From Peribolospora baueri (Eukaryota), in assembly GCA_029717555.1 (NCBI GenBank), contig JAMDHS010000111.1, positions 1 to 63,006 of the forward strand: a stretch of DNA of 63,006 bases, in the 5' to 3' direction. How positions within the stretch are numbered: position 1 is the stretch's first letter; each line of letters opens with the position of its first letter. This document shows positions 2,431 through 53,896 of this stretch, one piece after another. Below the pieces are notes generated by a model. The model ran no database searches. It was not told the origin of the DNA and saw only the letters and a list, made by a program, of their open reading frames with translations. The position numbers and the translations under genes are program-made.

Positions 2431-3400
2431 CGGAACCCAAATGCGCTCATTCCCGATGTAGGGCATCGCCGCACCCCGAGGTCTCACTGGAGCTCAGCCC
2501 TCTTGCAGGTGGGAGGTGCGGAGGAGGTAGAGGCAAGGGGAGCGGGGGAGGCACGACGAACGTGAACGGCACTGGTCCTGCCGCTGCTACCAGCGGTGGA
2601 GGTGGTGGTGGCGAAGGTGGGGGAGGCGAAGTGAGGCGAGGAGAAGTCGCGTCGAGCTCCTCGTTTTATTCGAAGGAGTCTTCCCCACCCTGGCCACTCT
2701 CTCCCCTCCCCTGTGGGCTTTCCTCCTCTAATTGCCTTATCTTCCAGATAGGGAATGGGGGCGCCTCAGTGGTACCCGTTCCGATCCGTTGGGGGAAACA
2801 CTAGGTCGAACCTTGTCGCTTCGCGGTCGTTTTGTGTGCACGTTGTGGTTTGGGCCGCCGTTGCCGCTGAGTGGTTTGTATTGACCCAAGATGGGTTTGC
2901 AACTGAGGTCGCGCGGCAAATAGTAGAAGGTATTAGAAGGTATGAGAGCCCAAGCCGCAGGGTGGGAAAGACCTCTTGAACAAGTCGCTGATGAAGGTTT
3001 TCAGGACAGGTAAGGCGTGTCGTGGAAGCGATGGAGAGGAAGTGATGGAGACAGAGAAGAGAGTAACGAGACGAAGAGAACTGGATCGATTGGTTTGGTT
3101 GTAGTAAGGTGAAGGTCATCCTCCAGGGATACTCAGAGTCCCTGTTCTTATATACATAGAATAGGGCTCAGGGGACGAGTAACAATGGGGAGGAGTAATG
3201 GGAAACGAGTGCATCACGTACGCCTGCGCCCGCGTGCATTCGATCCGACCAATGAGGAGAGAGCAATAGGGAGACGCGGGTTTCCCGCGACAAGGCATCA
3301 GTAATGATGGTGCGGAGAGTGTCGGGAAGAGAGACGGCGATTCGACCAGAGTTTGCGCAATCTGTTGAATGTCAGTGCTCGAGGACGTCCCGGTAACGAG
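2431..3400 (-). pseudogene. Decayed relic of the RNase III-like gene module at 48.3-49.6 kb
   Basis: Minus strand gives TFISDLF/EVFPTLR (cf. TFLNDLFNEEVFPTLR) and PRDLSCKPIL...GGPNHNVHTKRPRSDK (cf. PHDLGRKTGL...GGANNKGANKRRRSEN). DNA ggttcgacctagtgtttcccccaacggatcggaacgggtacca matches ggttcgacctaatgtttctcccacaggtcgcaacgggtacca at ~49175. Frameshifted; catalytic motifs not seen. Confidence 0.75.
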
Positions 3401-3479
3401 AAAGAATTGCGTCCCCTGGCGGACAAGGAAGTTGTTGTGTTTGGCAGGAGCGTTGCCATGAATGGCGTCCTGTTTGAAA

Positions 3480-4300
3480 AAAGTGCGCATGATCCGACGT
3501 ATGCTTCGACAGTGGTCGTCATTCCAGGCCAGCAGAAGTGACGCGCAAGGTATGACTGGGTCTTGTCACATCCTGGATGACCAGCTAGTGGACTGTCGCG
3601 AGCTTGCGAAAGGAGGCGCATTCTGAGAGGGTCGCTGGCGGGGACATAAACACGATCCTTGTAGAAGAGGAGATCGCGCTGGTGAGAGTAGTCAGACGGG
3701 CTGTGGCCTAGCTGCTGCGAGATTTTGACGAAGTGCGGGTCTTGTGGCAAGAGTTGACGAATTTCTCGAAGTAGGTCAAGGTCTGCGAGAGATTGACCTG
3801 GATCCGTACTTACTCTTGTCGAAGCCGTTGACCTCGACTTGGATTGGTCGTAGAATCGTTTCCTCGGTTGTGTTCGCGGCCTTCCCCTCTTTCAAGAGGT
3901 CAGCGCGGCGCGTCAATGCATTGGCCCTGCCATTGAGGGCGCCAGGTCGGTACTCGAGCCAATAATGACGAGCGTTGAGCGTCTGAGACCAACGTGCCTG
4001 GTGTCGAGAGAGAACCTTGGAGGTCTCAAGATTCTTGCGATCCGTGATGATGGTGATCGGGTCGTGCAAAGATTCTAGGTAATGTCGCCATAGGCTGACA
4101 CTCGCGACGATTGCTAGAAGATCCTTTTTGCCGACTGTGTAGTTCGGCTCGGCGGGCGAGAGTTTCCTAGACATGAACGCAGTATGGTGGAGGCGATTAG
4201 TCTAAGGATCACGCTGGCTAAGAATGCCCGAGATAGTGCAATCAGAGGCATCGGTTTCCAGAATTGTGCGCCGGTATTGGTGGTGTGTTCTAAGGCCGGG
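3480..4300 (-). mobile_element. Truncated, frameshifted Ty3/Gypsy pol fragment (RNase H + integrase Zn-binding region)
   Basis: [40 protein letters not shown]...[14 protein letters not shown]...[14 protein letters not shown] and DSPLAGHPGCDKT...FCWPGM in different frames. No LTRs seen. Confidence 0.9.
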
Positions 4301-35471: not shown

Positions 35472-36212
35472 GGTGAGTGGGGCTCGGCTTTTGAGCGAAC
35501 TAGGGCAACTTGAGGCGGATAGGGGGTCAACGCTGGGCTCGGCGGAGATCCGGCAGGGTGGGACGAGGGTGGGGATGGTGGTGGGAAGAAGAGGGAACGT
35601 CAGCCGACGCGATGCGAGTCCCCGCCGTGATGCTCCGAGCCGGGAACGTATGAAACGTATGAATGCAAGCGTCGATCACTCGCGCTCGCCCATCGCGGCC
35701 TTTAGTCGCCGATGCCGCAGCCCGCCAAGAGATGCAATGTGGAGATGGATCAGCCGGGACCAAGTGACAAGTCGCCGGGTGCCTCGCACCGACGTGAAGT
35801 GAGCGTGACGACTTCGGTTCTCTGTGCGAGAGTGAAGCGAGCACCGACGTGGCGACGGCCCTACCGCACATGCGCCACGTCTCCTACTACAAAACACTTG
35901 GGTTTGCGACCGGCGCCTCAGGTCGAGCACAGATAAAGAGGAACGGGTGAGCGCGGACGAGACGAGACAAGGAAGATAGCATCAACGCAGGCGTTGATGA
36001 GATGGAAGCGTTTGAGGGGCAGGCGGGCGGAGAGGAAAGGCGCTGACTTCGGCCTCGGCTGGGGTTCCTGGCTTTGATTCTGCGTTGGTTCAGGTCAGGC
36101 ACCCACTAAGGCACAGCGATGCGGCAGCAGTAAGGCGGCACAGACGGACAAAAAAGCTTCGCAAACCCACTCAGAGTCATTTATACACAGGCGCCACGCG
36201 ACACGCTCGGTC

Positions 36213-36537
36213 TGTCACAAATCTCCGCTCAGAATCTCGTGCTCATAGGCTCGGACAAAGGAGCTGTGACGTTGCGAGGTTAGAACAAAGGAGCTGCGGC
36301 GTTGCAAGGTTAGAACAAAGGAGCTATGACGTTGCGAGGTTAGAACATAGGTGCTACGGTGCTGCACCGGTTCATGAAATATAAAGAGAGCCGGACAGGG
36401 CGTCCGCATCTTTCCTCCCCAAGCTAAGAATCCTTTTGTCACCGCCCAGGTTTCCTCCAGAGTTCCCCGTCCAGCATCAGCACCTCTGTCCCAGCCTCCG
36501 CCCCATCCTCGTTCCCGTCCTCGTCCCTGTCCTGACA
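36213..36537 (+). repeat. Left LTR (TGTCA...TGACA, 325 bp)
   Basis: Highly similar direct repeat of 44323-44672; TG...CA ends; ATATAAA box; three 30-bp internal repeats. Confidence 0.9.
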
Positions 36538-37012: not shown

Positions 37013-37914
37013 ATGCCTTCCTCTCCGGAATCACTGCCTCGAGAACTTCCAAGTCGGACCCCGACACCCGAGTCTAGTGGCACCTGGCCATCCGAACTGA
37101 GCCCCGGCGAGGAGGTTTACAAAAACTTCAAGACAAGGAGCGTTTCCCTTGTCGACGGTCAGATTTTACGAGTGCAGGATCTAGTCGCAGCGGAACCGCA
37201 GACTTTCACTTACAATCTCACGAAAACTACGCCGGAGCCGTACGATTCGTCAAAGCGAATACGACCATTCCCGTACCCGAGGTATACCGCCTTGGAACAG
37301 TCGGTCCCTATGAATTCATGTACCTGGAGAAGATGGAAGGAACTCCTCTGCCGGATGACGACGACGCAGTGATCGACGACAACCTGGTGGCCCAAATACT
37401 AGCTTTTCGGGAGCAGCTACGGTCAATCAAGAGCGACGTGATCCGAGGCTTTGGACCGGACCAGAAGCTTGTTAACCCGCGGCTCACCAGGATGGACATC
37501 CCTCTGTTACTGAAACCGTGTGGATCGGTTCTCGAGTACCTCATTCGCCGTCTTCGCGCCATCGAAAGACCGCACATCGAATCGCTGGATCGCCTGATTG
37601 CCCATTTGGAATCGGGCGCCATTCAGATCGAGCCGTGCGACATCGTTCTCTGTCACGGCGACTTTTCGGCGTGCAACATTCTCGCCAAGGACGGCAAAGT
37701 GACCGCATTGTTGGACTGGGAATATGCTGGCTTCTACCCAGAGTATGAGGAAGACTGTTACGACAACAAGAACGAGCCTCTGCATTACTTGGTATATAGC
37801 GACGCTTGGATGGACAAGTTTCCGACCATAGCCAAGATTGAAAGATGCATCGCGATGGCTAGGAAGGAAAAGGGACATTTGTCCGAGTTCATAGAGTCTA
37901 ATTTCGTCCTCTGA
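37013..37914 (+). pseudogene. APH/choline-kinase-like phosphotransferase with an apparent frameshift near 37.1-37.2 kb
   Basis: AVRFVKANTTIPVPEVY...FMYLEKMEG, LCHGDFSACNIL and ALLDWEYAGFYP. The ATG-bearing 5' part is in a different frame and no plausible intron was seen. Confidence 0.75.
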
Positions 37915-38740: not shown

Positions 38741-39059
38741 GGCATCGGTTTCAAGTGGGTGAAGTGGGACTGCTGCGCCGTTGTAGGCAAGAAAGAAGGC
38801 AGAGGATGCGTGCAACGACGGCGATAGAACAAGGACCAGGATTGCAAAGACAGAGCTAAAGGGTGTGTACAGGGAAGAACAAGCTAGAACGGATAAAGGG
38901 CCCTAGGAACGAGGAAGGGTGCTGCAAGTCTTTTATAGACAAGCCATGGTGCGGGGCCCGCACAAGAGAGGGCCGGCACGCCGACAGACCACGTGTTGGA
39001 ATTGGCAGCGACGAGCACCGTGGTTACTATTTGCACACGTGTGTTGGACCGCTCTTCGT

Positions 39060-39603
39060 GTCGATCATCACGCCACAGGATGGGCACTTGTATCGCCTGA
39101 AGAGCCGAGTTTCTATCTGTCAGGTCGATGTATGATTTAAATTGAATTGAAGTAAGTCAGTTTTGAAGGTTAGCTTAGCTGAAAAGAGACCAATTTCAAC
39201 CCCCATTTAATCGCCCGTCATTCTTCAGGACAACGGCTATGAAGGCCAGCTAAGCGCAATCTACACGGCCGTGGGTTGAAATTGGTCACGGCCATCGATA
39301 AAAAGCTTCACTTGTGAGATGAAACTATGGCAGAGGTTGCGATCCTTGCCATCGAACTCAGGGGCCGCGTTGTGGCCGTGACCAATTTCAACCCACGGCC
39401 GTGTAGATTGCGCTTAGCTGGCCTTCATAGCCGTTGTCCTGAAGAATGACGGGCGATTAAATGGGGGTTGAAATTGGTCTCTTTTCAGCTAGCCTTCAAA
39501 ACTGACTGACTTCAATTCAAATTAATTCATATATCGACCTCACAGATAGAGGCTCGGCTCTTCAAGTACTTCAGGTGCACAAACTGTGGCGAGATGCTCA
39601 ACA
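39060..39603. repeat. Long nested inverted repeat (foldback)
   Basis: 39176-39294 is the exact reverse complement of 39373-39491, with a 78-bp spacer; similarity continues outward with mismatches. Confidence 0.95.
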
Positions 39604-39697
39604 CACGCACCGCTGCGAGCCATGTCTGCAAAAAGAAATAGGTTTAGTGATATGCAAGCGACGAGGAAGCAGTGTCGCACGACGGGAGGGACCGGCG

Positions 39698-40773
39698 ATG
39701 ACCGACCGGGTGCCGGTCCGGGTTGAAGACATTATTCTTAGCTTCTTCCAACCCGAGTCGACTCTCCCGTCCCATGGAGGACCAAGGGGAGCTCATGCAA
39801 CGCTCCAGCGGGAAATCGAGCAGCTGAAAGCGGCTCAGCAAGACCCTCCCGCGGCCCAGATCCCCAGCACGCTCACATGGCGCCCCAGGTCTCGGCCGAC
39901 CTCATGGGCCCTCCCCCTGAGTTCGATGGCAAGGATCGCAACCTCTGCCATAGTTTCATCTCACAAGTGAAGCTTTTTATCGATACCAATGCCAACATCT
40001 TTCAGGACGACAAAGCAAAGGTGTCGTACAAAGTCTCGCGTCTCCGGGGTCGTGCCTATCAATGGGTCGAGCCCCATCTCCTCAAGGACAAAGATCCGAT
40101 ACGGACCGACTTCAAGAAGTTTCTCGAGGAGCTTGTCAAGAATCTCGGTGACCCCGACAGGGCTTACAGCGCCATCCGCCAGCTGCAGACGCTCCGGAAG
40201 ACGGGTTCAGTGGCTTCCTACGCCACTCAATTCCAACAGTTAAGCGCACACATCGACTGGAACGACAGTGCGTTGAGGTACCTGTTCTACAAGAACCTCA
40301 AGCCGGCGACGCAGGACTCCCTGGCTTTGTCGGCCGAGAAGCCGACGGACCTTAATGAACTGATCGACCTGGCCATCCGGCTCGACAACAGGAACTATGA
40401 GCGACTCGTCTACCAGAGGGCGAGCTATGGGCCCTATCCTCCGCACGGTTCTCCGCCTCCTCCTCCGCCGGCAGCCGCCTCCAGCTCCAGGCCGCCGATT
40501 GCGTCTGGCGTCGTTCCAATGGACGTGGACGCAACCCAGTCCCGGTTCCATCCTCTCACCCCGGAGGAGAAGACCCGTGGGATCCGGGGTGGGTTGTGCC
40601 TCTACTGTGGCGGGTCTGGGCACCTCGCTCGTAGCTGCCCGGCCAAGGGAAACAGGCCGGTACGGGCTCATGCCACCCTTCCCGCGACCCCGGCCCAGTC
40701 GTCCAGCTCGCCTTCGGCCACTTCCTCCTCAGTCCTCTCGTCATCCGACTCCAGGTACTACTCAAAAAACTAG
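39698..40773 (+). pseudogene. gag: Retrotransposon gag (frameshift near 39.87 kb)
   Basis: PPEFDG...FISQVKLF, LRGRAYQW, GSVASYATQF, VPMDVD and CCHC knuckle CLYCGGSGHLARSCP. Confidence 0.9.
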
Positions 40774-43700
40774 GTGGCTTGGACCCGCCCATTCCCCCGG
40801 TCCCAAGCCTACCCGTGCTTTGGGGAACCCCTCCAACTCCGTCCCAGTCGCCCAGCTCGCCTCCGGCCGTTTCCTTCGCCGCCCTTGCGCCTTCCGACTC
40901 ACACTTCGTGCTTCCCGTGCGGATCTCCCGCGATAATGCCCCTGCTGTCGACACCATTGCCCTTGCAGACAGTGGAGCGACCTCCAACTTTATTGATCGG
41001 GAATTCAGTGATCGGTACAACCTTTTGCTTTAGGCCAAGGCCCAGCCTCAGCCCTCCTAGTCACCGACGGGCGACCGATCAGCTCCGGGCCCGTCACCCA
41101 TTACGTCGAGACCGGGCTACGCATTAGTTCCCATCGGGAGACCCTCCCGTTTGATGTCACCCGCCTGGCCTGTTATCCCATCGTTTTGGGATCCTCTGGT
41201 TGCGTCGCTATAACCCTTTCATCGACTGGCGGCGCGACAGGCTCCAGTTCACCTCCAGTCATTGCGTCCAATCCTGCGTCGAGAATCCTCCAGTCGTTTC
41301 AGCCGTGCCTCTAGTTCCAGCAGCTCCCCAGTCTACAGAATGTCCCAGCACCGAGGTCGTCCAGGTCACCATCCAGCCCAGCCCCGTTCAGTCCAGTCCA
41401 GCCCGGCCCAGCCCTGTCCAGTCCAACCCAGTTCCGCCGAGTCCAGTTCCCAGCCTCCAGAATGTCCCAGCACCGAGGCCGTCTCCCATCCAGAATCGGA
41501 ACACCTAGCCCAGATCTCAAGCACGCTATCCCAGCAAGGGACCTTCGAGTCCAGCCTTCCCGATGCCCCCGAATACGTCACTGAGCTCAAGAAAAGGGTC
41601 CCAACCACGTATCACGATCTGTTAGCGGCGTTCTCCAAGACCAAAGCCGACACGCTGCCCCACCCAGCGCCCCTACGACCACTCCATCGATCTGGAACCT
41701 GGTACAAACCCTCCTTTCGGCCCACTGTACGCCTTGTCCGAACTGGAGCTCAAAGCCCTCTCCGAATGGATCAAAGAGAACCTCAAGGGCTTCATTCGTG
41801 CGAGCCAGTCCCCAGCCGGAGCCCCCATCCTGTTCGTGAAGAAGAAGGACGGCAGCCTTCGTCTTTGCGTCGACTACAGGGCTCTCAACAAGATCACCGT
41901 CAGGAATCGCTACCCTCTCCCTCTCATAGGCGAAGCGATTGACAGGCTCCGAGGTGCCAAAGTCTTCACCAGACTGGACCTACGCGGCGCTTACAACCTC
42001 CTCCGGATTAAGGAAGGTGACGAGTGGAAGACGGCTTTCAGAACACGCGGCCACTTCGAGTGCCTGGTGATGCCTTTCGGCCTCACCAACGCGCCGGCCT
42101 CGTTCCAGCATCTCATGAACGACCTCTTCCGGGACCTCTTGGACGTGACTGTCCTCATCTACCTTGACGACATCCTGGTCTTCTCCCCAGACGCGGACAG
42201 CCACAGGGAGTATGTCCGGGTTGTCCTGGAACGTCTTATCCGGCATGGTCTCTACGCTAAGGCCGAGAAATGCGAGTTCTCCGTATCGTCGACCGAATTT
42301 TTGGGCTTTATCGTCTCGGATGATGGCGTCTCCATGGCCCCTTCTAAGGTGGACGCTGTCCTTCAGTGGCCGGAACCGGCTTCTGTCAAGGAGCTCCAGT
42401 AGTTTCTCGGGTTCGCTAACTTTTACCGGCGTTTCATCAATGGCTACTCGAGGATCATCAACCCCCTCACCAGACTGCTCAAGAAGGGCGCCAAGTTCAC
42501 CATGGACGCCTCGGCCAAAGATGCCTTCGCCCGCCTTAAGACAGCCGTCACATCAGCTCCGAGCCTGACGCAACGATCCCAGCTTGGAAACCGAAATCGA
42601 GACCGATGCCTCTGATTTCGCTATTTCGGCAATCCTATCTCAGCGGCATGGCGGAATACTCCACCCCGTTGCCTTCATGTCACGAAAATGGTACCCGCGG
42701 AACTCAATTACGCAATCCACGACAAGGAGCTCTTGGCCCTAGTGTCCGCCGTCAAATGCTGGCGTCACTACCTCGAGGGAATTGACAAGACCTTCAAGAT
42801 TGTCACGGATCACGAGGCGCTCAAGGCCTTCCAAACATCGAAGATCCTTACCCGACGCCAGGCTCGCTGGTCCGAGGAGATCAACCATCACAGGTACACC
42901 CTCGAGTATCGCCCCGGTCTTCAGAATGGCAAAGCCGACAGTCTCTCACGCCGATCGGACCTCTCGGAAGGGGGAAAGGCTTCCCAAGCGCCCCCTCAGG
43001 CCGTTCTTCGCCCACTCCAAGCCTCCGCAACGTACGCAGCGACCTCCGACGTTGCGGAGATGATCAAGCGTCACCTGAAGCATGACCCGGCCGTCCAGGA
43101 CGTTCTGCAGCAGCTGCAAAGCACCGACACCCCCGGTCCGCCGTAGTCCCTCCAGGACGACCTCCTGCTGCATGACGGCCTCATCTACGTCCCAGACTTC
43201 GAGCCTTTAAAGACCAAGCTTCTCGAGCAGGCCCACGACTCCCGCATCTCTGGGCATTTCGGTCAAGCCAAGACGTTGGAGATCCTCTCGAGGAATTACT
43301 ACTGGCCATCGATGAGGGCCTTTGTCAAGGACTACGTCCGCTCCTGCGATGCTTGCCAGCGCCACAAGCCCGTCCACCACGCGAAGTATGGGCTTCTCCA
43401 GTCGCTCCCAGTCCCTGAACGTCCATAGCTCTCCCTCTCGATGGACTACATCACAGACCTGCCTCTCTCCGAGGGATTCGATGCCATCCTTGTCGTTGTG
43501 GACGTGGACCGCCTCACCAAGATGAGTCACTTCATTCCGGCTCGAACCACTGATAATTCCCCCCGATTGGCGACCCATTACGTCCACAACGTCTTCCGTC
43601 TTCATGGGCTTCCAAGCGACATTGTCTCGGACGGAGGGACGCAGTTCAACTCTCCTTAGTGGAAGGAAGTCCTTAGGCAGCTCAGGATCCAGCCAAACCT

Positions 43701-44313
43701 CTCTACGGCCTTTCATCCCCAGACGGACGGCCAGACGGAGAGGACCAACCAGACCATCGAACAATACCTACGGATGTACACTAAATATCTCCAAGATGAC
43801 TGGTCAGACCTCTTGCCGATCGCCGAATTCGCCCACAACAACGCTCATCATTCGACCATCGGCATGACTCCCTTCTTCGCGAATTATGGATATCACCCGA
43901 GACTAGAGGTGACCCTTAGCGACTCGACAGTGCCCCAAGCCAATGACTGGGCGAGACGGCTCCAGGAGACGCATCGGCAGGCAGCGGACAGTATCCGAAC
44001 GGCTCTCGTCAGGTCGCTTCTGGAGCCGTTCGTCCCAAATACTCTGTCCTCTCGCTCCTCTGCCTCACCCCCACCTCCCGTCATCACCGAGGCGGGGCAA
44101 GAAGAGTATGAGGTTGCCAAGATACTCGATTCGCGTTTCTTCCGCAAGCTGAAATACCTTGTCGACTGGGTCGGATACGGTCCTGAGGAGCGCTCCTGGG
44201 TGGATGCGCGTGACTTTGACGACGACGACAGCCTTGTGGTTGACTTTCACACGGCTTACCCCCAGAAGCCAGGCCAACGACGTCTCAACCGCGCTCGCGG
44301 AGCTCACGCTTAG
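40774..44313 (+). pseudogene. pol: Retrotransposon pol (PR, RT, RNase H, integrase, chromodomain) with stops and frameshifts
   Basis: [23 protein letters not shown]...YLDD; ETDASD...[16 protein letters not shown]...IVSDGGTQF...TDGQTER; EYEVAKILDSR...KYLVDWVGYG.EERSW. In-frame TAG at 42400 and others. Confidence 0.95.
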
Positions 44314-44322
44314 CCCCGGGGG

Positions 44323-44672
44323 CAAACCTCCGCTCAGAACCTCGTGCTCATAGGCTCGGACAAAGGAGCTGTGACGTTGCAAGGTTAGAACAAAGGAGCT
44401 GTGGCGTTGCGAGGTTAGAACATAGGAGCTGTGGCTTTGCGAGGTTAGAACAAGGGAGCTATGACGTTGCGAGGTTAGAACATAGGAGCTACGGTGCTGC
44501 ACCGGTTCATGAACGTGTATATAAAGAGAGCCGGACAGGGCGTCCGCATCTTTCCTCCCCAAGCTAAGAATACTTTTGTCACCGCTCAGGTTTCCTCTAG
44601 AGTTCCCCGTCCAGCATCAGCACCTCTGTCTCAGCCTCCGCCCCATCCTCGTTCCCGTCCTCGTCCCTGTCC
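44323..44672 (+). repeat. Right LTR (termini eroded)
   Basis: Direct repeat of 36218-36532 with four 30-bp units; lacks TGTCA/TGACA ends. Confidence 0.88.
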
Positions 44673-46860
44673 CCGACTTGCCTGCTCCTTGCTTTGCGTC
44701 GACTTCCGGTGGACCTCCATTCCGTCCTCCGTCCCTCGCTCGTGATCCGACCTGAGTAGGGAAGTCCTCACTGACACGGTCCTGCGCTTTCCTGCGCTTG
44801 CTAGATGGCAGCGCTCATGCATGCGGAAGGTTGCAGCGGAGTAAGCCAGGCCATGGCGGTGAGAAGAGGGGAGAAGGAAGAGCGTATATGCAAAAATGGA
44901 AAAGGAACGGATCGTCGGAAAGGCGTGAACGAAAAGAGGAGCGACCTCCACCTCGTCGTCGTCGTCGCCCGCGTGGCTAAGGTGGCCGCGCCTGTTGGCG
45001 AAGATTCAGAACGGGACAATACAGGACTGCCGGGATCAGATAGGCATTGTTGTCTGCGCCGCGTATCATAGGTTCGACTTGAGCTCGTTAGGTATTTTGT
45101 CGTCTTTCGCGAGAATGGAAGGGACGGACTCGAGCCATCCTAGTCGGCGGGCGCGCCCGTCTGCGCACCGGCAGAACAAGGTAGGCGTGGTTGGAGACAT
45201 CATTCAACTGCATGTCGTAGCCCTGCACGCGCGTCGAAACGAGGAAGTGAGCTAGGAAGACAACAGGCGAGGGAATATCACGTGCAGTGAGAAAGAGTAT
45301 GAGAACGGACTGACGTCTCGAAGGAACCAGCAACGAGTAGCAAGGAGCACACTTTGAGGACCACCTCGGGCACCTCGGCCTCCCGACTCCTGGCCGCCTT
45401 CTTTCTACACCTGGTACCAGCAAGCGGGCCAGTGGGGAGAGGGCGAAGGAGCGAAAGCGAAGCGCGGACAAGATCGTAGACGGACGGTCAACTCACGCCC
45501 CTGCCGCCTACGTCGACCTCCTTCTCCGTCCGCATCGAACGCGAAAGCTCGCCTTCTCCAACCGACCACGAGCACGACCGTCGCCAATCGCCCTCACGCC
45601 CTCCTTCTCTCCCTACGCCAGCTCAACCGAGCCCTCCGGAGACAAGGGCACGTTGCACAGCAGAGTCCGGTCTACGTAGCACCAAAGTTCTGGTGACCGA
45701 CCGAGGCAAATTTGACGACGACGTCAAAGGCGTGGGAGAGATGAGTTGGGCATGAACAACCAAACCAGATGATAACACGCCGTAGAGAGCAGCTCTTCCA
45801 ATCGACTCACGCAAATTGTCAGAGACGACTTTGATCACGAGCTTCTTGTTTTCTCCCTCTTCACTACCCTCATCGCCCGACGCTACTCTGTCTCCTTTCC
45901 CCCCTTCCGCAACGGTCTCAGCTGCACAGCTTCGCCCTCCTCCCCCTCCAACCGCCTCCCGGCCCCCGCCAGCTCCATTTCTCGTCCCCAGAACCATGCC
46001 TTCGTCCGACGCGCGGCCTCCTTCTTTTCCACCTTCCGCCGACGCCTTCGTCCCGTTTCTTCGAGGCTCTCCGAGCGTAGTCACAAGTCCAGGATCACGA
46101 TTGCGGCCGCGACGAGGACGATGGCGACAAAGACGCTCGAGAAGACGTTCACGATGGACGGCATCGGGTCGCTCGGATGGGTGCTTGGTTGTGATTGCCT
46201 GGTCGCTTAGTCGTTGAGTGGAGTCGGACAGACGGATGGCGCGGGTTCCACTGTCTTTTGAGGGAGAGAGATGTGTGCAGGCGAAGAGCGCGGTCGGTGA
46301 CGTGGAGGCGTCGGATGATCGAGAGAGATGGCTAATAACACGCGAGCGCACAGACAGAAAGACGTCGATTCACTCCGTCGCCGTCCCAGGTCTGACCATC
46401 TACCGCTATGGTCACTCCGACCATGTCCCCTCCCTCCGTCCGGTCCCCGAGCGGCACAAGCTCACTTCCACAACACTCGTGATTTGATATCGTCCTTCGC
46501 GATCGCTCGTGAAATCCTCAGAGAGCCACGTGCTGTCCACGCGGCGCCGCCGATGCCAAGAAGACCGCACTGAATGTCATCCCGTCACTCCTACCTCCGT
46601 GTGCCAGTCATCTGTCCGCTAGTTTCTTCCGATCTCCTGTTTGTTCTTCCCAATCTCCCAACCCTCCTCCCCCCGGTCGCCCCGCCCGTCTCTGAGTCTT
46701 GGTCGAGCATCGTCGGGAAACGCATCTCCTAGGCCGGCCGAGTACGGAACTACGCGGACATACGCGACCAAGTGGCGACGCTTGAACGCTTGCGCTGACT
46801 TGCAAGCTAAATCTGATTATCTCGGTGGCCGCTTCAGTCACGGATCGGCATCTCTCAACC

Positions 46861-47250
46861 ATGTCCACCTCCTTCCCCCAGCTCTCATCGCGGGTCGCCC
46901 GTTCCGTCGCGTCGTGCAGCCGCCACGCCCGCTTCATTTGCACGACGCCCCGCCTGCTGCAAACAAACTCGAACGACCCCTTCTCCCGCCCCTCGCCGCC
47001 CCGGCTGTCTCCAGAGGAACAGCAGGAGTTCGAGGCGCTCCTTCGGAAGAACAAGTCTCCCTTCTCTTCCGCCACCACCACCGAGTCTGAGCAACAGGAG
47101 CTGGACGGCGTCCACAAAGACATTCGCAAAGGCCCCGCCCCGGAATTCATCGGCGAGGTGAACCCGAAGACGGGGGAGGTGGGCGGACCGAAGAACGAAC
47201 CGCTCAAGCATGGAGAATGGAGCTTTGGAGGTCGGGTGACGGACTTTTAG
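46861..47250 (+). CDS. SDH8: Succinate dehydrogenase assembly factor 4 (DUF1674)
   Basis: Mitochondrial presequence, PPRLSPEEQQEFE, VNPKTGEVGGPKNEPLKHGEWSFGGRVTDF*. Confidence 0.92.
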   Translation: MSTSFPQLSSRVARSVASCSRHARFICTTPRLLQTNSNDPFSRPSPPRLSPEEQQEFEALLRKNKSPFSSATTTESEQQELDGVHKDIRKGPAPEFIGEVNPKTGEVGGPKNEPLKHGEWSFGGRVTDF

Positions 47251-47798
47251 CTTAGCAAGCACATGGATCAAAAAGTCGTGTGCGCTCTTCGCGGTGAGTG
47301 CTTTGGCTTTCTTGTTCATCACATACCGGCCGATGCGCGGCACTTCTTGCTTATCCTGCCCACGTGTCTTCTGCCGTGCTTCTTTTCTTTTCCCGCACAG
47401 GCTGAGCTACGCTCGCCGCCAGGACGTCTGAAACCGTTGTCCGTTTCAACATTGCAATGAGCGGATAAGGATTCACGCCCAGTCGAGGTCATCTTGTCGC
47501 TAAAGGCGCCCTCACGGTTTGGCCGGGCGCTGCATTCAGAAGGGTGATTGAACAGCGAAGGGTGAAGCAAACGGAAACGGAACGGCGTATGTACCCGCCA
47601 GTACATGATTTCCTTGCGCGTGGGCGGACGGACGTGCGATGACGGGCCGAGCGACGGGCGTACAGAGAGGAGAACGTTGGGAGACGGAAGCGGCGGGAGA
47701 CGGAGAGGACGGAATGAGGATGTTCAAGGAAGGCCGGGAGCTCACTGAGGTGAAAACGTTGTTTTATCATTGCGATGTTCCCCCTCGTCTCTCGGATC

Positions 47799-48095
47799 GA
47801 GAATTCTCAGACCTTGCTCGCGCTCACTAATGTGGAGACGTTGTCTTGCAGTCCTCATTTCGTAGTGCTGGTCTGGTCCCTTGGATTGAGAATTCTCCGA
47901 ATTCACTCACGCTCACTTGCGATATCCACCTCGGTTTAAGAACTGTCCGCATTTGCTCACGCTCACTTGCAATATCCACCTCGGATTGAGAACTGTCCGC
48001 GTTCGCTCACGCTCACTTGCAACCTTCACTTTCAATCGAACACTCTCCGGATTCGCTCACGCTCACTAGTGTTGAGTCTTGGCTTTGCAGTTCTC
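47799..48095 (+). repeat. 50-bp tandem minisatellite (4 units + 1 degenerate upstream unit)
   Basis: Units start at 47888, 47938, 47988 and 48038, each with core CTCACGCTCACT; related unit at 47799. Confidence 0.9.
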
Positions 48096-48316
48096 TCCCC
48101 GAGGTGGGGCATGATCTCATTCACACTCAACAAATTTTTGTCATGGCCGAAGAGTGGTCCAGTCCAGAGACAAAGGCATAAGAAGGGCTCCGTTGCCCGC
48201 CTGTTCTCTCTCCATCTTCACTCCAATCTAATCCTCTCCACAAGCCTTCTCCTCTCCCTTCTCTGCTACATCCACCGTGCTTTTCCGTAAAGCTCATTTT
48301 CCTCACAGATTATACC

Positions 48317-49186
48317 ATGTCGCCTGCGCCTATCCCGACCTCGACGCCTGAATCTTCGACCACTTCGGACTCGTGGGCGATGAAGCCCTATGGCTATCCG
48401 CTTCCTTTCTGCGAAGAGAGCGACATTCCAAAGCCCGCGATTGCCTTCCGGCATACTCACTGTCCGCCTCTGCCGGGCCTCCGTCTCAAGGAGAACCAAG
48501 TCAAAATGGGGCTCCACTATACCGCTGTTCTCCCTCTCCACCTACGGCAGGATCGGGCCGCACAACAGAGGGCGTACATCGCCTCTTACGAAACCGCTGA
48601 GTGGGTAGGCGACAAAGTGATAACCAGCTTCATCGCGACACGCCTGATGATTCTCTATCCTGGCTACTCAATTACCGCATATCAAGTGAGTGTTTTGGGG
48701 AGAGTCAGGGCTTTTGCTTGTGAGAAGAGAAGAAAGTGCTAACATATATTGTGGTCCATACTTTTCCAGAAAGTTGTCGAGCTTCTCACACAGAACTCGA
48801 CCTTTTCTGCCCTCGCGCACCACTACCGCTTCCATCGGTTCGCCGCCGTCGGTCCCGACATTGCCCCCGCACACGTGCCAAACATTCTCGCAGACATGTT
48901 CGAGGCCTTCGTCGCCTTGATGTTTGCTGAGGCAACCACTGATTACCACCAATGGGCTGCTGTCAACACATTCCTCAACGACCTATTTAACGAAGAGGTG
49001 TTTCCCACGCTTCGACAAATCTTGGACTCGTACGCTTTCAATCCGCCACACGACCTTGGTCGCAAGACCGGTCTTTGGGACAAAGCCGACAAAGCAAACC
49101 GCGGGGTGACGGCACCAGTGCCTGCGGGCGGCGCAAACAACAAAGGTGCGAACAAGAGACGGCGGAGTGAGAATGGTTCGACCTAA
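48317..49186 (+). CDS. Stand-alone RNase III-domain protein (~261 aa; intron 48686-48769)
   Basis: YETAEWVGDKVITSFIATRLMILYP (cf. RNase III signature ERLEFLGD), LTQNSTFSALA and ILADMFEAFVALMF. Intron has GTGAGT, GCTAAC and CAG and restores frame. No dsRBD; basic KRRRS tail. Confidence 0.85.
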
Positions 49187-49630
49187 TGTTTCTCCCACAG
49201 GTCGCAACGGGTACCATTTGGTGTCCCTGCGCTCTGGAGGTTCCGTTGGAGCTCAGCCATCTTACGGAGAATGGGCTCCTTCGGGTACCGTCTGGGAGGA
49301 CATTTAGGGATGACAACCATCTCTCCGCCCCTCCTCCCCTGGTGATCCACCGTGTGTTTCCCCCAACAGGTCGCAACGGGTACCTTTTTGGTGCCCCTGC
49401 GCTCTGGAGGTCCCTTTGGAGCTCAGCCCTCTTGTAGGGAATGGGCTCCTTTGGGTTCCGTCTGGGAGGACACTAAGGTATAAAGATCACCGGGGTCGAG
49501 GGAAGGAGGGAAGGAGGGGGGCGGAGATGTCCTTCCAGACTGACCCCACTAACGCGAAAGAGCTCGTCCCATAAGAGTCAAAAAACGGAAATTTTCAGAG
49601 CGCAGGGACGCACCGAAAGGTACCTGTTGT
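49187..49630. repeat. Direct + inverted repeat cluster 3' of the RNase III gene
   Basis: Unit A 49187-49350, second direct copy 49355-49472, inverted diverged copy ~49485-49630. Confidence 0.85.
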
Positions 49631-50199
49631 GCGGAAGATGGACCTCGGCGACGCGATGAACCGTCTGGCTGAATCTCTCTGGCGGCCTAGGACGACTGTG
49701 CCCTTGGTGCAGTCGGGTAGGCCTCGTAGGCGATCATAGTGTCGCTCATTGCCAATCATCGCGCACCATCTTCCACACCTTATTTTTCTTTTTCTCTTTT
49801 TTAAATGTTTCCTTGCAGTGTAAATTCCAATAAATAAAAAGGACTCGTTAATGGGTACAGCCAAATTCATATTTCACTCATGTCGGGAACTAAGGTTGAT
49901 CCACTTCTTCTCGGATTCCGATCTATGCAATGCGACGCAACGCCCTGAACCCAATGCGGAGAGTAGAGACAAAGAGATCGGTCGACCGAGGCAAACAGGA
50001 GCACCGTGGCGAGACGGGCATGAGGGTAATCCGAATTACAAGCGGGGAGCGGACATGAAAATGATGGAAGCGAGTATTGCTGATACGCCAGACTTCCATC
50101 ATTTTCCAGCTCCTTCTTGAGGTCCATTACCAGGTAAATAGAGATAATACGTAAACGGGTAGGTTGGCAAGAAATGCAGGGTCCGATGGACGAAGAGAA

Positions 50200-53100
50200 T
50201 CAAAGGATGCCTTGGGAATAGCTGTGTCATGCCAAGACGAGCAGGGCCTGTCAGGTACGCTTCCTCCCACATCCTAGCCCGGACCGGACCGAGACACTCA
50301 CTACTGGTAAGAGTCATACAGCCTCGTGAATGCCGAACCCGCTGCGCTGACGATCAGTCTCTCCATGAAGTCGTCCGCTTGCGCCGCGCTCAGCGACAGC
50401 TGGAACCGGTCGCGCAGCGCTTGTGAGGTCAGATCGCCCAGGGCGAAGCACGGTAGTTTCGAATCTAGAGTTGCGGAGGGACGAGACGAAGGGCACCGAT
50501 GGCACGACGACGACGTTAGCTCGCTCCGCGTCTCCCCAAGGTCATGGTCACTCCCAACCGCCCGCTCACCCTTCTGCATGAGCTCGACGAGCATTATGAT
50601 TCTCTCTGCGTTCTTTCTCACGTCTCTGAACCCTGACTTTACGAGCTCCTTGAACTGCCTGTACTTAACGCTCTCGAAGCCGCCGAGGATGTCGATGTAC
50701 TCCGACGACAACTTGAACGGCGCCATCTCGAAGCCCACCCCGCCCGGTGAGAGGCCGAGCATGAAGCCAAAGTCGATATCTGCGCCACGTCGGTGGCAAT
50801 CCGATTCGTTTCGCATAGCGGAGGCGGATGAGCGCGCCGCTACGTTCCCCAACGAGATACCACGTCCAACCGTACTCACGAATCAGATGGCCCTCGTTGT
50901 CCACGAGGATGTTCCCATTATGCCGATCCTTGATTTGCAAGAGGTAGCACACGATCGAGTACCCGGCCAAGGACCGGATAAGGTTGTTCCGAGCTCGGTT
51001 GAACTTGGCCGAAGACGGATCGCCGAACGTCTGGACGTGGGTTAGGGGAGTACGATGTCGTCAGAGATGGCCTGCTGTTAAGATAGGAGCCGTTCCTCGT
51101 CCTGCAGCATTCGCTCACATTGACGAAGTGATCGTACAGGCTGTACGTGTAAAAGTTACGATCGTCCACGTGTCTTGCGTAGCCTTCCTTCTTGATCGAG
51201 TGGATGGACACAGCGTCGGTGATGGTCTCCATCAGACCAGAGCTCTCCGACGTGACGAGGATTCGAAAGCTGGGCATCCACGCATGACGACCGAGGTCTT
51301 TCAGCATCGAAAAAGCAACGTCCTCGCCAAAAAAAAACGAGGAAATCAAAGTCCGACACGGCACTCACTATCGCACCCAGCACTGAGTTCCCGTCTCCTT
51401 CCATATCTTGGCAAACTCGTTGATCAGCTGCACGGCCAGCTGCTCCTGCCGCAAATCCGCACCCGTCTTGACGATCACCGAGATCACGTCCCAACTCGCC
51501 AGGTGACCAAATGGTGAGGCGGTCCGGATGCGCTCCCTTTTCGCCGCCCATGATTCTCGGAATACGGCCGCTTTGAGAGCGGAAGAATGCGGATCAAAGG
51601 GAAAGTATGAGCTTTTCGGCCGCCGGACTGCAGCACGGAATCGAGTCACAAAACTCACCGCTTGGATCGTCCTTCAAAACGGTCTCGTCTTCGAGACCCT
51701 GCTGGCCAGGGCGGGACTGAGTCACTCCGTTCGCCCGCATCTGGTGGCCGAGCGCGGAAGAAGCCAAATTGGACCGGCTCGGCGTGGGGTCGCGGATGTC
51801 TCCGACGGGGACGAAGAGCTCGGATGACGCGCTGGCTTGAGGGCCCACATTCACGATGTCCTCCTCCTCCAAACCCTCTGGCGTTTCCATCAAACCCGGC
51901 TCGGAAGAGAGACTGTCCTCGCCGCGCTGCAGCACCTCCTCAGTCGCCTTACTGGACTGCGTTCGCTCAGAAGCGCTCGCTTCAGCGGCCGCCTTCCTTC
52001 GCTGTTTCTCCGCCGGCACTTGCTTTCCAGACCGAGTCCCAGATCCGGAAATCGGCACAGAAAACCCGGCGGCCCTCCGCCTCCGCGCCTCTTCCTTCAC
52101 CACGAGCGTCTTCAAGATCTCCATGTTCTCCCTCCGCTCCGGATCGAAATCGAGCTCGTCCGTGAGCACCTCCACATGCATCAGGTACGGCGCCCGGTCA
52201 GCCGAGTTGAGGACGACAGCGTCCGCCGGGTTGATGCGCACCACCCGATGGTGTCGGAGCCGCGCGCCCGGTCGTCGTTGTTTTCGGAAGGGAAGCGCGC
52301 TGGAATCGGTATCTCGCGGGTCATCGGAGACGGTGTCGATGGGGGTATCGGCGGTGCACCAGAGAGGCACGCAGACCTCTGCGGGCAGCTTGTTGTTCAG
52401 CAGTGTCAGCTCCGCCCTCAGCGCGCTCAGTCTGGCCGGTTTGGGAAGCGCGATGAGGCGGGTGGAGATGTCTTGGAGGTCGAGCAGGAACTGCGTCTGC
52501 TGCTTGCAGTAGTTAGTTCGGAGCAGCCGAGTCCGCCCTTCGACGTCGTAGCGGGAGAGGAGGACGTCGGGTGGCAGCATAGCTCGACTTGGTAAAGCGT
52601 GGGATGAGGCGAAGGGAGAAGGAAAGGAAGTGCTGGAGCGGGAGACGACGAGGTTGGGGACGCTGCGCGATTGAGCGGCGGTAGTCGGTGTCGACACGTT
52701 TCGAGCGCGCGTTCGAACGACGTGCGAATTGGTCTTGGACATGCTTCGAGGCCGCGTCGTCCGTGCCGTCCGCGTCGTCGGGATGGTGGGAGAGTTCTGC
52801 TTGGACGCCCTTCGGGACCACCCCGCGTCGCCTTCCTCCTCGCTCTCATACGCGTCCCCTTCACTAGAGCTCGCCTCCGCTGCGCGATCGTCTAAGCTCT
52901 CCGTTCGACTATGGTACTGGCGCCTTTGCATGGCGGCCAAATTCCCACCCCTTTCCACTTCACCAGCACCCCGTTCAACTCCGTCACTCACTGCTCCCTT
53001 CGCTACCGCATCTCGATCTACGATGCTGCCGAGTGGCTTCCTTTTGCCTTGCGCAACCGCCACTCCTCCCGCCTCGTTGCCAAGACAAGGCATGGCGGGA

Positions 53101-53896
53101 GTAGCGGCAAGCATGGTGCCCAGACCGACAAACAGAGAGCTGACATTGGCAGGGTTGATCTTACCGGTAGGGAGGCGAGGCACAAGCTCGGGGGACTGTT
53201 GAGAGCCCGTAGCGGAAATGGACGGACGCAAGGCGATGGTGTCATCGAAGAGGATGGTTTGGACTTTGTTGAAGACTCGTGAGCAAACCAAGAAAGACGC
53301 CGTGTGCGGGTTGATGGACAGGTCTGATAGGGTAGCTTGAAGGTACCAAAGTGTCTGCCCCGGACAACGTCGTCGAGCGATGAGCGCCGTTTCGTGAAAG
53401 CGTGAAAGGTATGCGAGCCAAAAAGAGCCGAATCGAGGTTTCGCTCACCAGAAGGGCCACATGTACACTCTCTTCACATCGCTCCAGAATAAAATTCTCC
53501 AACGCCTTCGATTCCGACGGTTGAGCGACGAGAAGGTGACTGTTCAAGGCGAGAGATATAGGTCAGCGCTCCGATGCTCTTGCCAATCCCGGGGGGGGGG
53601 GGGGGGGAAATCCGAGCCGTACCATAACTGAGGCCAGTAGAATTCCACTTCTTCTCGCGGGAACGCCGTGCGAAGCTGCTGTGTGAGGTAGTGAGTGATG
53701 CCGATGCTGTCCGAGTGTCTCTTGAGGCTGAACAAAGGCGACGGAGGAGGCAAAGAGCGCACAAATGTTGGCCTCTCCCTCTCCCTTCCGAGTCGCCCGA
53801 GTCGCAGCTCGAAGCGCAGCGAAAGACTCACTAGGTCAGGGCCAGCTCGGGCGAGAAGAACTCGCTCTTGAAAAGCCGAAGGAGAAGGCTAGCCAT
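50200..53896 (-). CDS. PIK1: Phosphatidylinositol 4-kinase III-beta (multi-exon)
   Basis: [73 protein letters not shown]...[24 protein letters not shown]. Confidence 0.96.

Follow-up and report, generated by a model that had tools for sequence, protein, structure and literature searches.

A putative stand-alone RNase III gene in repeat-rich DNA of Peribolospora baueri

Introduction

RNase III enzymes with a single catalytic domain and no double-stranded RNA-binding domain (dsRBD) are well studied in bacteria as Mini-III, and are known in a few eukaryotes. Both EhRNaseIII of Entamoeba and the plant protein RTL4 lack a canonical dsRBD. The RNase III-like proteins of the mitochondrial ribosome have lost their catalytic residues, which in E. 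coli RNase III form the metal site from E38, E41 and D45 on the one side and D114 and E117 on the other. RNase III enzymes of the Mini-III type are active and site-specific without a dsRBD, and E. coli RNase III autoregulates via a hairpin in its own mRNA (PMC3867540). The RNase III domain and the domain-only architecture are already known, from Mini-III, plant RTLs and the Entamoeba RNaseIII. Here, a two-exon gene encoding an RNase III-like protein of 261 aa is described from a stretch of 63,006 nucleotides of Peribolospora baueri (contig JAMDHS010000111.1 of assembly GCA_029717555.1, positions 1 to 63,006), which is called the window throughout this paper. An earlier note on this DNA, made from the letters alone, had read the locus as a compact cassette of a nuclease and its own hairpin substrate.

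Judged from sequence, the locus is best explained as a lineage-restricted, probably active, domain-only RNase III gene of a small duplicated family in repeat-rich DNA, whose predicted downstream hairpin would be a by-product. The probability of this reading is put at roughly 0.55, and it overlaps in part with its rivals. What is new is a fungal nuclear version without detectable sequence relatives, with unique extensions and a repeat-linked duplication; a non-exhaustive literature search, at the level of abstracts, returned no description of such a fungal RNase III family.

A two-exon gene with coding character

As derived from open reading frame (ORF) translations and from reading of the sequence, the gene lies on the plus strand between an ORF with a DUF1674 match and a convergent kinase gene, and consists of two exons with the following parts:

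48317..48685, plus strand: exon 1, 123 aa; ~85 N-terminal residues without a recognised domain, followed by the first part of the RNase III domain, which includes ETAEWVGD (E92, E95, D99)
48686..48769, plus strand: intron of 84 nt that keeps the frame and contains one TAA; donor GTGAGT, branch site CTAAC, acceptor CAG
48770..49186, plus strand: exon 2, 138 aa and TAA; completes the RNase III domain, including ILADMFEA (D165, E168), and encodes behind it a helical C-terminal region with the basic tail KRRRS

In the numbering of the spliced protein, which is used here, ETAEWVGD occupies residues 92-99 and ADMFEA holds D165 and E168. The N-terminus, read from the translation of exon 1, is acidic and rich in Ser, Thr and Pro, the C-terminal sequence is ...NKRRRSENGST, and no recognised domain is present in the first ~85 and the last ~50 residues.

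The two-exon gene is real and intact, a judgement made because the splice signals are canonical, a paralogue carries the same donor site, the GC pattern is coding-like and the ORF is colinear in organism B, a close relative at ~2% divergence in which a single contig spans 47993-50600. By codon position, the GC content of the coding sequence (CDS) is highest at GC3 (0.64), followed by GC1 (0.59) and GC2 (0.46), as is typical of coding DNA, and the intron has a GC content of 0.43 vs 0.56 for the CDS. The end of exon 1 is conserved on a paralogous contig, where GTAAGT comes after it (a loose end behind 48667). Among the listed differences between the present sequence (A) and organism B, there are 5 synonymous changes at 187 synonymous sites and 5 non-synonymous changes at 596 non-synonymous sites, which may be taken as a weak hint of constraint on the ORF. 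The two exons postulated in the earlier note were confirmed (48317-48685 and 48770-49186), and the ETAEWVGD, ADMFEA and KRRRS motifs it had pointed out are all found in the 261-aa protein.

Evidence for an RNase III catalytic domain

Profile searches were made with a read-through query of 289 residues, which comprises both exons and the 28 intron-coded residues with an X at the intron stop; unless an exon is named, the PF00636 and TIGR02191 scores given in this paper refer to this query and not to the spliced protein. PF00636 matched it in a single stretch covering profile positions 3-99 of 102 (E 7.9e-4, 20.6 bits), and TIGR02191 from NCBIfam matched it in two stretches (E 1.6e-4, 21.3 bits). 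Exon 2 alone reached 13.6 bits against PF00636 (E 0.12), and a match to Drosha obtained from a single exon in a phmmer search of the PDB had an E-value of 0.099. No other Pfam family was found in the read-through at E<=10, and thus no dsRBD (dsrm), PAZ or helicase domain.

The signature motifs were compared with those of bacterial enzymes. For this comparison, rnc loci were fetched by a degenerate signature pattern and 60 non-redundant catalytic-domain pieces were cut out of them. The alignment of the read-through with these 60 pieces by hhalign had a probability of 91.7 and an E-value of 7.7e-7 over 109 columns. In the resulting 61-sequence alignment, the columns of E92, E95, G98 and D99 are invariant, and that of E168 is nearly so. 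YETAEWVGD was paired by phmmer with YETLEFLGD of the Aquifex RNase III and ILADMFEA with IIGDVFEA, and in the phmmer and hhalign pairings ILADMFEA aligns with ILADAxEA. In the ESM Atlas, clusters of RNase III and unnamed fungal clusters lay close to each exon taken separately (0.88 and 0.90-0.93); for exon 1 alone the nearest were unnamed fungal clusters (0.93), with RNase III clusters at 0.90.

A three-dimensional model was also predicted for the protein. With a bacterial RNase III alignment, AlphaFold2 (AF2) gave a model with a predicted local distance difference test (pLDDT) score of 64.5 and 72 residues at or above 90. When this model was compared with structure representatives (VIA), the top 30 rows were all RNase III folds, followed by unrelated rows at Z ~5, and the best match was E. 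coli 7r97_B, with Z 12.7 and a root-mean-square deviation (rmsd) of 2.9 A over 139 residues.

These lines of evidence are each modest, yet they agree with one another, and it is highly probable that the 261-aa protein contains an RNase III domain. The predicted catalytic domain is divergent, extends over residues ~87-200 and keeps all four metal-binding acidic residues. The earlier claims that the four acidic catalytic positions of class I RNase III align and that dsRBD, PAZ and helicase domains are lacking both hold, the former in the 61-sequence alignment and the latter with PF00636 as the sole Pfam family at E<=10.

Sequence relatives were sought widely. Word-indexed protein searches returned none for exon 2, against longer and against similar-length proteins, nor for the read-through, and an exhaustive HMMER search in which exon 2 alone was run against 1.84 billion representatives yielded no relative; its sole match (P0003), a 534-aa repeat protein, was rejected as a relative. 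A scan of JGI metagenome proteins gave 137 pattern matches, none of which was confirmed.

Comparison with known RNase III systems

The protein resembles the bacterial and plastid Mini-III in having a single RNase III catalytic domain without a dsRBD, and the AF2 model matches B. subtilis 4oun_A with Z 9.4 and an rmsd of 3.7 A over 104 residues, which is no better than its matches to other classes. In contrast to Mini-III (~125-145 aa), it is about twice as long, has N- and C-terminal extensions of its own and is encoded by a eukaryotic nuclear gene with an intron; no Mini-III model of NCBIfam matched it at E<=10, and the pre-23S rRNA substrate of Mini-III has no obvious counterpart here.

With the class 1 enzymes of E. 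coli and Aquifex (rnc), the ExxExxGD and DxxE motifs align column for column, and the best structural matches of the AF2 model belong to this class (7r97_B, Z 12.7; 1jfz_A, Z 11.5). Unlike them, the 261-aa protein has no dsRBD, and its TIGR02191 score of 21.3 bits compares with a cut-off of 166. The regulatory arrangement also differs: the operator hairpin of rnc is a short structure in the 5' untranslated region (UTR), whereas a cluster of dispersed repeats lies 3' of the gene described here. Rnt1, Dicer and Drosha carry extra domains, whereas only a single PF00636 stretch is found in this protein.

Among eukaryotic proteins, EhRNaseIII (5f3o) of Entamoeba and the plant RTL4 (9h4a) likewise have one RNase III domain and match the model at Z 9.4 (5f3o_A) and Z 10.8 (9h4a_B), but neither was found by phmmer against the PDB at E<=10. 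The mitoribosomal RNase III-like proteins are of similar size and match at the level of the fold, as any RNase III fold does; the chains compared were those of yeast (3j6b_5, Z 12.5; 9hlz_99, Z 9.9), N. crassa (6ywe_9, Z 8.0) and human (3j7y_c, Z 10.8). In contrast to these proteins (mL44 and mL57), the catalytic acids are kept in the 261-aa protein and its N-terminus is not presequence-like. A mitoribosomal identity is argued against because the acidic residues are retained and no mitoribosomal RNase III-like chain was matched by phmmer in the PDB at E<=10.

Flanking repeats and the predicted hairpin

The gene is bordered by a tandem array on its 5' side and by three copies of a repeat on its 3' side:

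47796..48095 (core 47879-48067), plus strand: 5' tandem array, period 50 in Tandem Repeats Finder (TRF), 2.9-3.4 copies, 82-86% matches
49178..49347, plus strand: 3' repeat copy 1, direct; 84.6% identity to copy 2 over 136 nt
49346..49495, plus strand: 3' repeat copy 2, direct; of the three, the most similar to the dispersed family
49485..49651, minus strand: 3' repeat copy 3, inverted and degenerate; identical to copy 1 in 113 of 186 alignment columns; the 3' arm of the predicted hairpin
49829..49834, plus strand: AATAAA hexamer beyond the 3' repeats, the first after the gene (read from the sequence)

Degenerate units close the 5' array at either end (47796-47856 and 48035-48095; repeat families D1 and D3). 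The array is shorter in organism B, where a contig joint from 47931 to 48043 skips 111 nt and has 11 other letters between, and it is a variable minisatellite. The motif CGG-N12-CCG, with a spacing that is presumably of the kind bound by fungal zinc-cluster factors, occurs in two or three of the 50-bp units (47929-48017), the array lying ~250-520 nt upstream of the ATG.

On the 3' side, copies 1 and 2 align over 49178-49311 and 49346-49481, and the alignment of copy 3 scores 133, compared with a maximum of 78 for shuffled sequences. Copy 1 already includes the stop codon of the gene and at least the two codons before it (49178-49186). Short self-complementary ends are present in copy 1 (49182-49197 with 49293-49308, 16 nt, 75%) and in copy 2 (49337-49347 with 49485-49495, 11 nt, 91%). 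Reading of the sequence further showed CTAGTGTT at the start of the 3' repeat and in the end unit of the 5' array. No repeat that links the left and right flanks of the block was found, the two flanks being unrelated repeat families.

The predicted hairpin arises because two direct copies and one inverted copy of the repeat sit behind the gene. The predicted fold of 49187-49640 has a minimum free energy (MFE) of -236.2 kcal/mol and a z-score of -8.84, and 0 of 100 shuffled sequences fold as well. It contains 93 long-range pairs between copies 1 and 3, and its longest uninterrupted helices are of 18, 16 and 13 bp. The upstream 50-bp array, the downstream repeats predicted to fold back into a long, imperfect hairpin (z -8.8) and the AATAAA beyond it, at 49829-49834, were all correctly recognised in the earlier note.

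The plus-strand fold of 49187-49640 is 22 kcal/mol more stable than that of the minus strand (-236.2 vs -214.1).

Several other identities were considered for the 3' repeat. A coding reading of the unit was dropped, since copies 1 and 2 differ by a 1-nt indel that puts them in different frames. A process like repeat-induced point mutation was also dropped as the source of the changes in the inverted copy: transitions run both ways, GC is equal (0.57-0.58) and the scoring itself favoured transitions. With Rfam, neither 47000-50500 (at E<=1) nor the window as a whole (at the gathering score) gave a match. Since the tRNA search found none, the repeat is not a recognisable tRNA-derived short interspersed element. 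Like a miniature inverted-repeat transposable element (MITE), the unit is ~130-170 bp long, non-coding, multi-copy and located next to genes, and has short self-complementary ends. In contrast to MITEs, no parent transposase or target-site duplications were found, and both copies in the window adjoin RNase III-like CDS, which would be unexpected for independent insertions. The unit may be called MITE-like only tentatively, because its self-complementary ends are short and imperfect and target-site duplications are not definable. An exact DNA pattern of the 3' repeat had 0 matches in metagenomes.

Recurrence of the gene and its flanks

Copies of parts of the locus were found elsewhere in the genome and in the window, the latter next to a transposon fragment:

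48046..48263, plus strand: 5' flank (promoter / 5' UTR region), with copies at about 3-4 further loci in this genome
2758..3010, minus strand: relic of the C-terminal CDS and the first ~45-50 nt of the 3' repeat; degenerate, with EVFPTLR kept
3301..4201, minus strand: dead Ty3/gypsy fragment that adjoins the relic; RT_RNaseH (E 8.5e-16) and Integrase_H2C2 zinc-binding domain (E 1.1e-13), truncated after the zinc domain

The copy numbers, termini and paralogue structures come from one comparison with the contig sets X1, X3 and X4, of which X1 is probably the source organism. In the bin 49340-49466 of the 3' repeat, the summed contig depth, which is not a strict copy number, was 1605 in X1 over a baseline of 107.5 (~15x), 1478 in X3 and 1870 in X4. 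The bin 48070-48196 of the 5' flank had a summed depth of 507.7 over the same baseline of 107.5. By depth, there are ~14 extra copies of the 3' repeat and ~3.6 extra copies of the 5' flank. Five X1 contigs have a common continuation behind 49465 (loose ends, 0.94 agreement). The 5' flank is matched by three other X1 contigs (records 2, 3 and 4, at 48046-48263, 48053-48134 and 48101-48263), and one X1 contig that has it goes on with pieces of the CDS, 48323-48356 and then 48676 onward. In contigs of organism B, a 5' piece, the signature-motif region (48602-48644) and the repeat follow one another in this order, with joints from 48134 to 48602 and on to 49354 in X3; a further joint from 48165 to 49360 is present in X3 and X4, and the X3 contig with the gene-repeat order seems also to hold 49652-49762, judged by its equal depth of 73.7. 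Caution is needed with the paralogue joints, which rest on pieces of 18-43 nt at 80% likeness that are often repeats, the intervening sequence not being given.

The relic in the window was detected by blastn, in which 48965-49185 aligns with 3001-2802 at 61.7% over 230 nt (E 1.1e-6); its repeat part aligns 49346-49397 with 2809-2758 at 79% over 52 nt. It is the only other trace of the unit in the window, and the predicted fold at this locus is not significant (z -1.1). Together, the contigs and the relic indicate a small family, at about 3-4 loci, that would have been duplicated with its flanks in this genome. Segmental duplication and mobility would each fit these data.

Neighbouring genes and other features of the window

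The neighbours on its two sides are the following:

46825..47250: ORF with a DUF1674 match (E 8.9e-19)
50301..50879, minus strand: convergent kinase gene, which ends at 50301; match to the C-terminal portion of PI3_PI4_kinase (E 9.9e-06; 26.1 bits, with the cut-off slightly higher at 27.1)

We take DUF1674 to be the SDHAF4/Sdh8 family. Upstream of the kinase-domain exon there is a 616-aa ORF (51597-53444, minus strand) with no Pfam match at E<=0.001, so that the label PIK1 rests on the C-terminal PI3/PI4-kinase match alone. Of the neighbours named SDH8 and PIK1 in the earlier note, the first would agree with the DUF1674 match and the second with the sub-threshold C-terminal kinase match.

Further upstream, a Ty3/gypsy retrotransposon of the chromovirus type occupies 39742-44310 on the plus strand, with Ty3 capsid/gag, RVT_1 (E 1.6e-35), RT_RNaseH and a chromodomain. 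Direct repeats at 36188-36532 and 44293-44672, 97% identical over 154 nt, 8.1 kb apart and with sub-repeats of a 30-bp period, may be its long terminal repeats. An APH/choline-kinase-like ORF at 37078-37911 lies between the left direct repeat and gag, which suggests that the element may be nested or rearranged. The region 39024-39984, just upstream of the gypsy gag ORF, contains inverted repeats: 39176-39294 with 39373-39491 (119 nt, 100% complementarity), 39294-39364 with 39914-39984 (71 nt at 100%) and another of 152 nt at 78%.

Discussion

By analogy with its family, the product of the gene would pair as a homodimer that forms one cleavage centre and would cut double-stranded RNA with Mg2+. 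Without a dsRBD, it may choose its substrate through its extensions or a partner, as Mini-III works. The N-terminal ~85 residues would be unstructured, a helical C-terminal region would lie behind the domain, and the KRRR of its basic tail suggests nuclear localisation. The first copy of the 3' repeat supplies the stop codon of the gene, and the appearance of an enzyme packaged with its substrate is most likely a by-product of repeat-rich DNA rather than a demonstrated regulatory pairing.

A number of points weigh against this interpretation. The profile check recommended in the earlier note gave a match close to the full PF00636 profile (E 7.9e-4), but its 20.6 bits are below the Pfam gathering cut-off of 27 bits, and the 21.3 bits of TIGR02191 are far below the equivalog cut-off of 166 bits. 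Prediction by AF2 from the single sequence failed (pLDDT 37), the best Foldseek E-value of the AF2 model was 4.6e-3, and the structural match is partly circular because the alignment given to AF2 was itself built from RNase III sequences of bacteria. No homologue that could show the catalytic residues to be conserved in a family was found in any sequence database searched. The ratio of non-synonymous to synonymous changes per site (pN/pS) between A and B, roughly 0.3-0.4 among the listed differences, is drawn from 10 codons. Similarity to one paralogous piece seems to be lost immediately upstream of 48631, at the place of the signature motif. As to the repeats, both occurrences in the 63-kb window (2/2) are attached to RNase III-like C-terminal sequence, and at least two other loci seem to keep pieces of the CDS followed by the repeat, which speaks for a closer link of gene and repeat than the word incidental implies.

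The same recurrence bears on the possibility that the block of 5' flank, ORF and 3' repeats is, or was, a mobile or self-propagating element; the short repeats would then derive from it without coding capacity, and the ORF would encode the element's own protein or be a passenger. Other contigs carry pieces of the 5' flank, CDS and repeat in the same order, the depth points to ~3.6 extra copies of the flank and ~14 of the repeat, the relic at 2758-3010 sits in transposon debris, and both the short self-complementary ends of the repeat and the presence of CTAGTGTT at the repeat start and in the end unit of the array would suit such an origin. Against it, neither terminal inverted repeats nor target-site duplications mark the edges of the block, the joints depend on fragments of 18-43 nt matched at 80% likeness, the block lacks a transposase-like domain, and organism B has the locus in colinear order; segmental duplication accounts for the same data. 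We know of no transposon that encodes an RNase III. This explanation is considered unlikely, although less so than the other rivals. The earlier description as a cassette, possibly mobile, is supported in part: the joint recurrence of 5' flank, CDS patches and repeat, together with the relic at 2758-3010, shows duplication as a unit, whereas no termini or target-site duplications that would point to mobility were found.

The gene could also be a decaying or non-catalytic member of its family, either a pseudoenzyme or a young pseudogene whose frame is still open, in which case its likeness to RNase III would imply no nuclease function. The hidden Markov model scores are sub-threshold and no homologues were found in the databases searched; the C-terminal end and the stop codon come from the repeat, a dead relic lies in the same window, A and B differ in the CDS by ~1.5-1.8%, about as much as in the flanks, and GC3 is lower than in the neighbour genes. 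Yet a frame of 261 codons is open across a canonical intron in a genome of 58% GC, the four acidic residues are all kept, synonymous changes are over-represented per site (5/187 vs 5/596) and GC by codon position follows a coding-like pattern. With these features on the other side, decay is judged less likely again than mobility.

Lower still is placed the proposal that the 3' fold-back is transcribed as the 3' UTR of the gene and cut by its product, which would bring about autoregulation, the production of small RNAs or interference with RNA interference. The predicted plus-strand hairpin is long and stable (MFE -236 kcal/mol, z -8.8) and more stable than that of the minus strand, it begins at the stop codon with no AATAAA before 49829, and the catalytic residues are kept; a precedent is given by E. 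coli RNase III, which autoregulates through a hairpin in its own mRNA (PMC3867540). The arms of the hairpin, however, come from a dispersed repeat, and the inverted one has degenerated badly (113/186 columns identical). The sole paralogous relic that can be folded has no significant structure (z -1.1), and conservation in organism B is uninformative at ~2% divergence. The view of the 3' hairpin as the gene's own substrate, put forward in the earlier note, is not supported, the hairpin being made of three copies of a repeat that is found at ~15x baseline depth in the same organism.

Very improbable, finally, is a self-propagating cassette in which a domain-only nuclease for double-stranded RNA travels with hairpin-forming repeats, scatters non-coding copies and acts on the hairpin transcripts of its own family; if it were true, the nuclease could blunt or redirect RNA silencing directed against the element, or make small RNAs from the hairpins. 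To our knowledge, a transposon-like unit encoding RNase III has not been described in fungi, and a non-exhaustive search of the literature at abstract level found none.

Significance

Under the preferred reading, that of a lineage-restricted and probably active gene whose hairpin is a by-product, such a fungal RNase III would extend the family by a further branch and could be an additional component of double-stranded RNA metabolism in fungi. The recurrence of gene and repeat bears on whether a nuclease and a source of structured RNA can spread as one unit. If the two do not spread together, the locus would be an ordinary lineage-specific gene in repeat-rich DNA.

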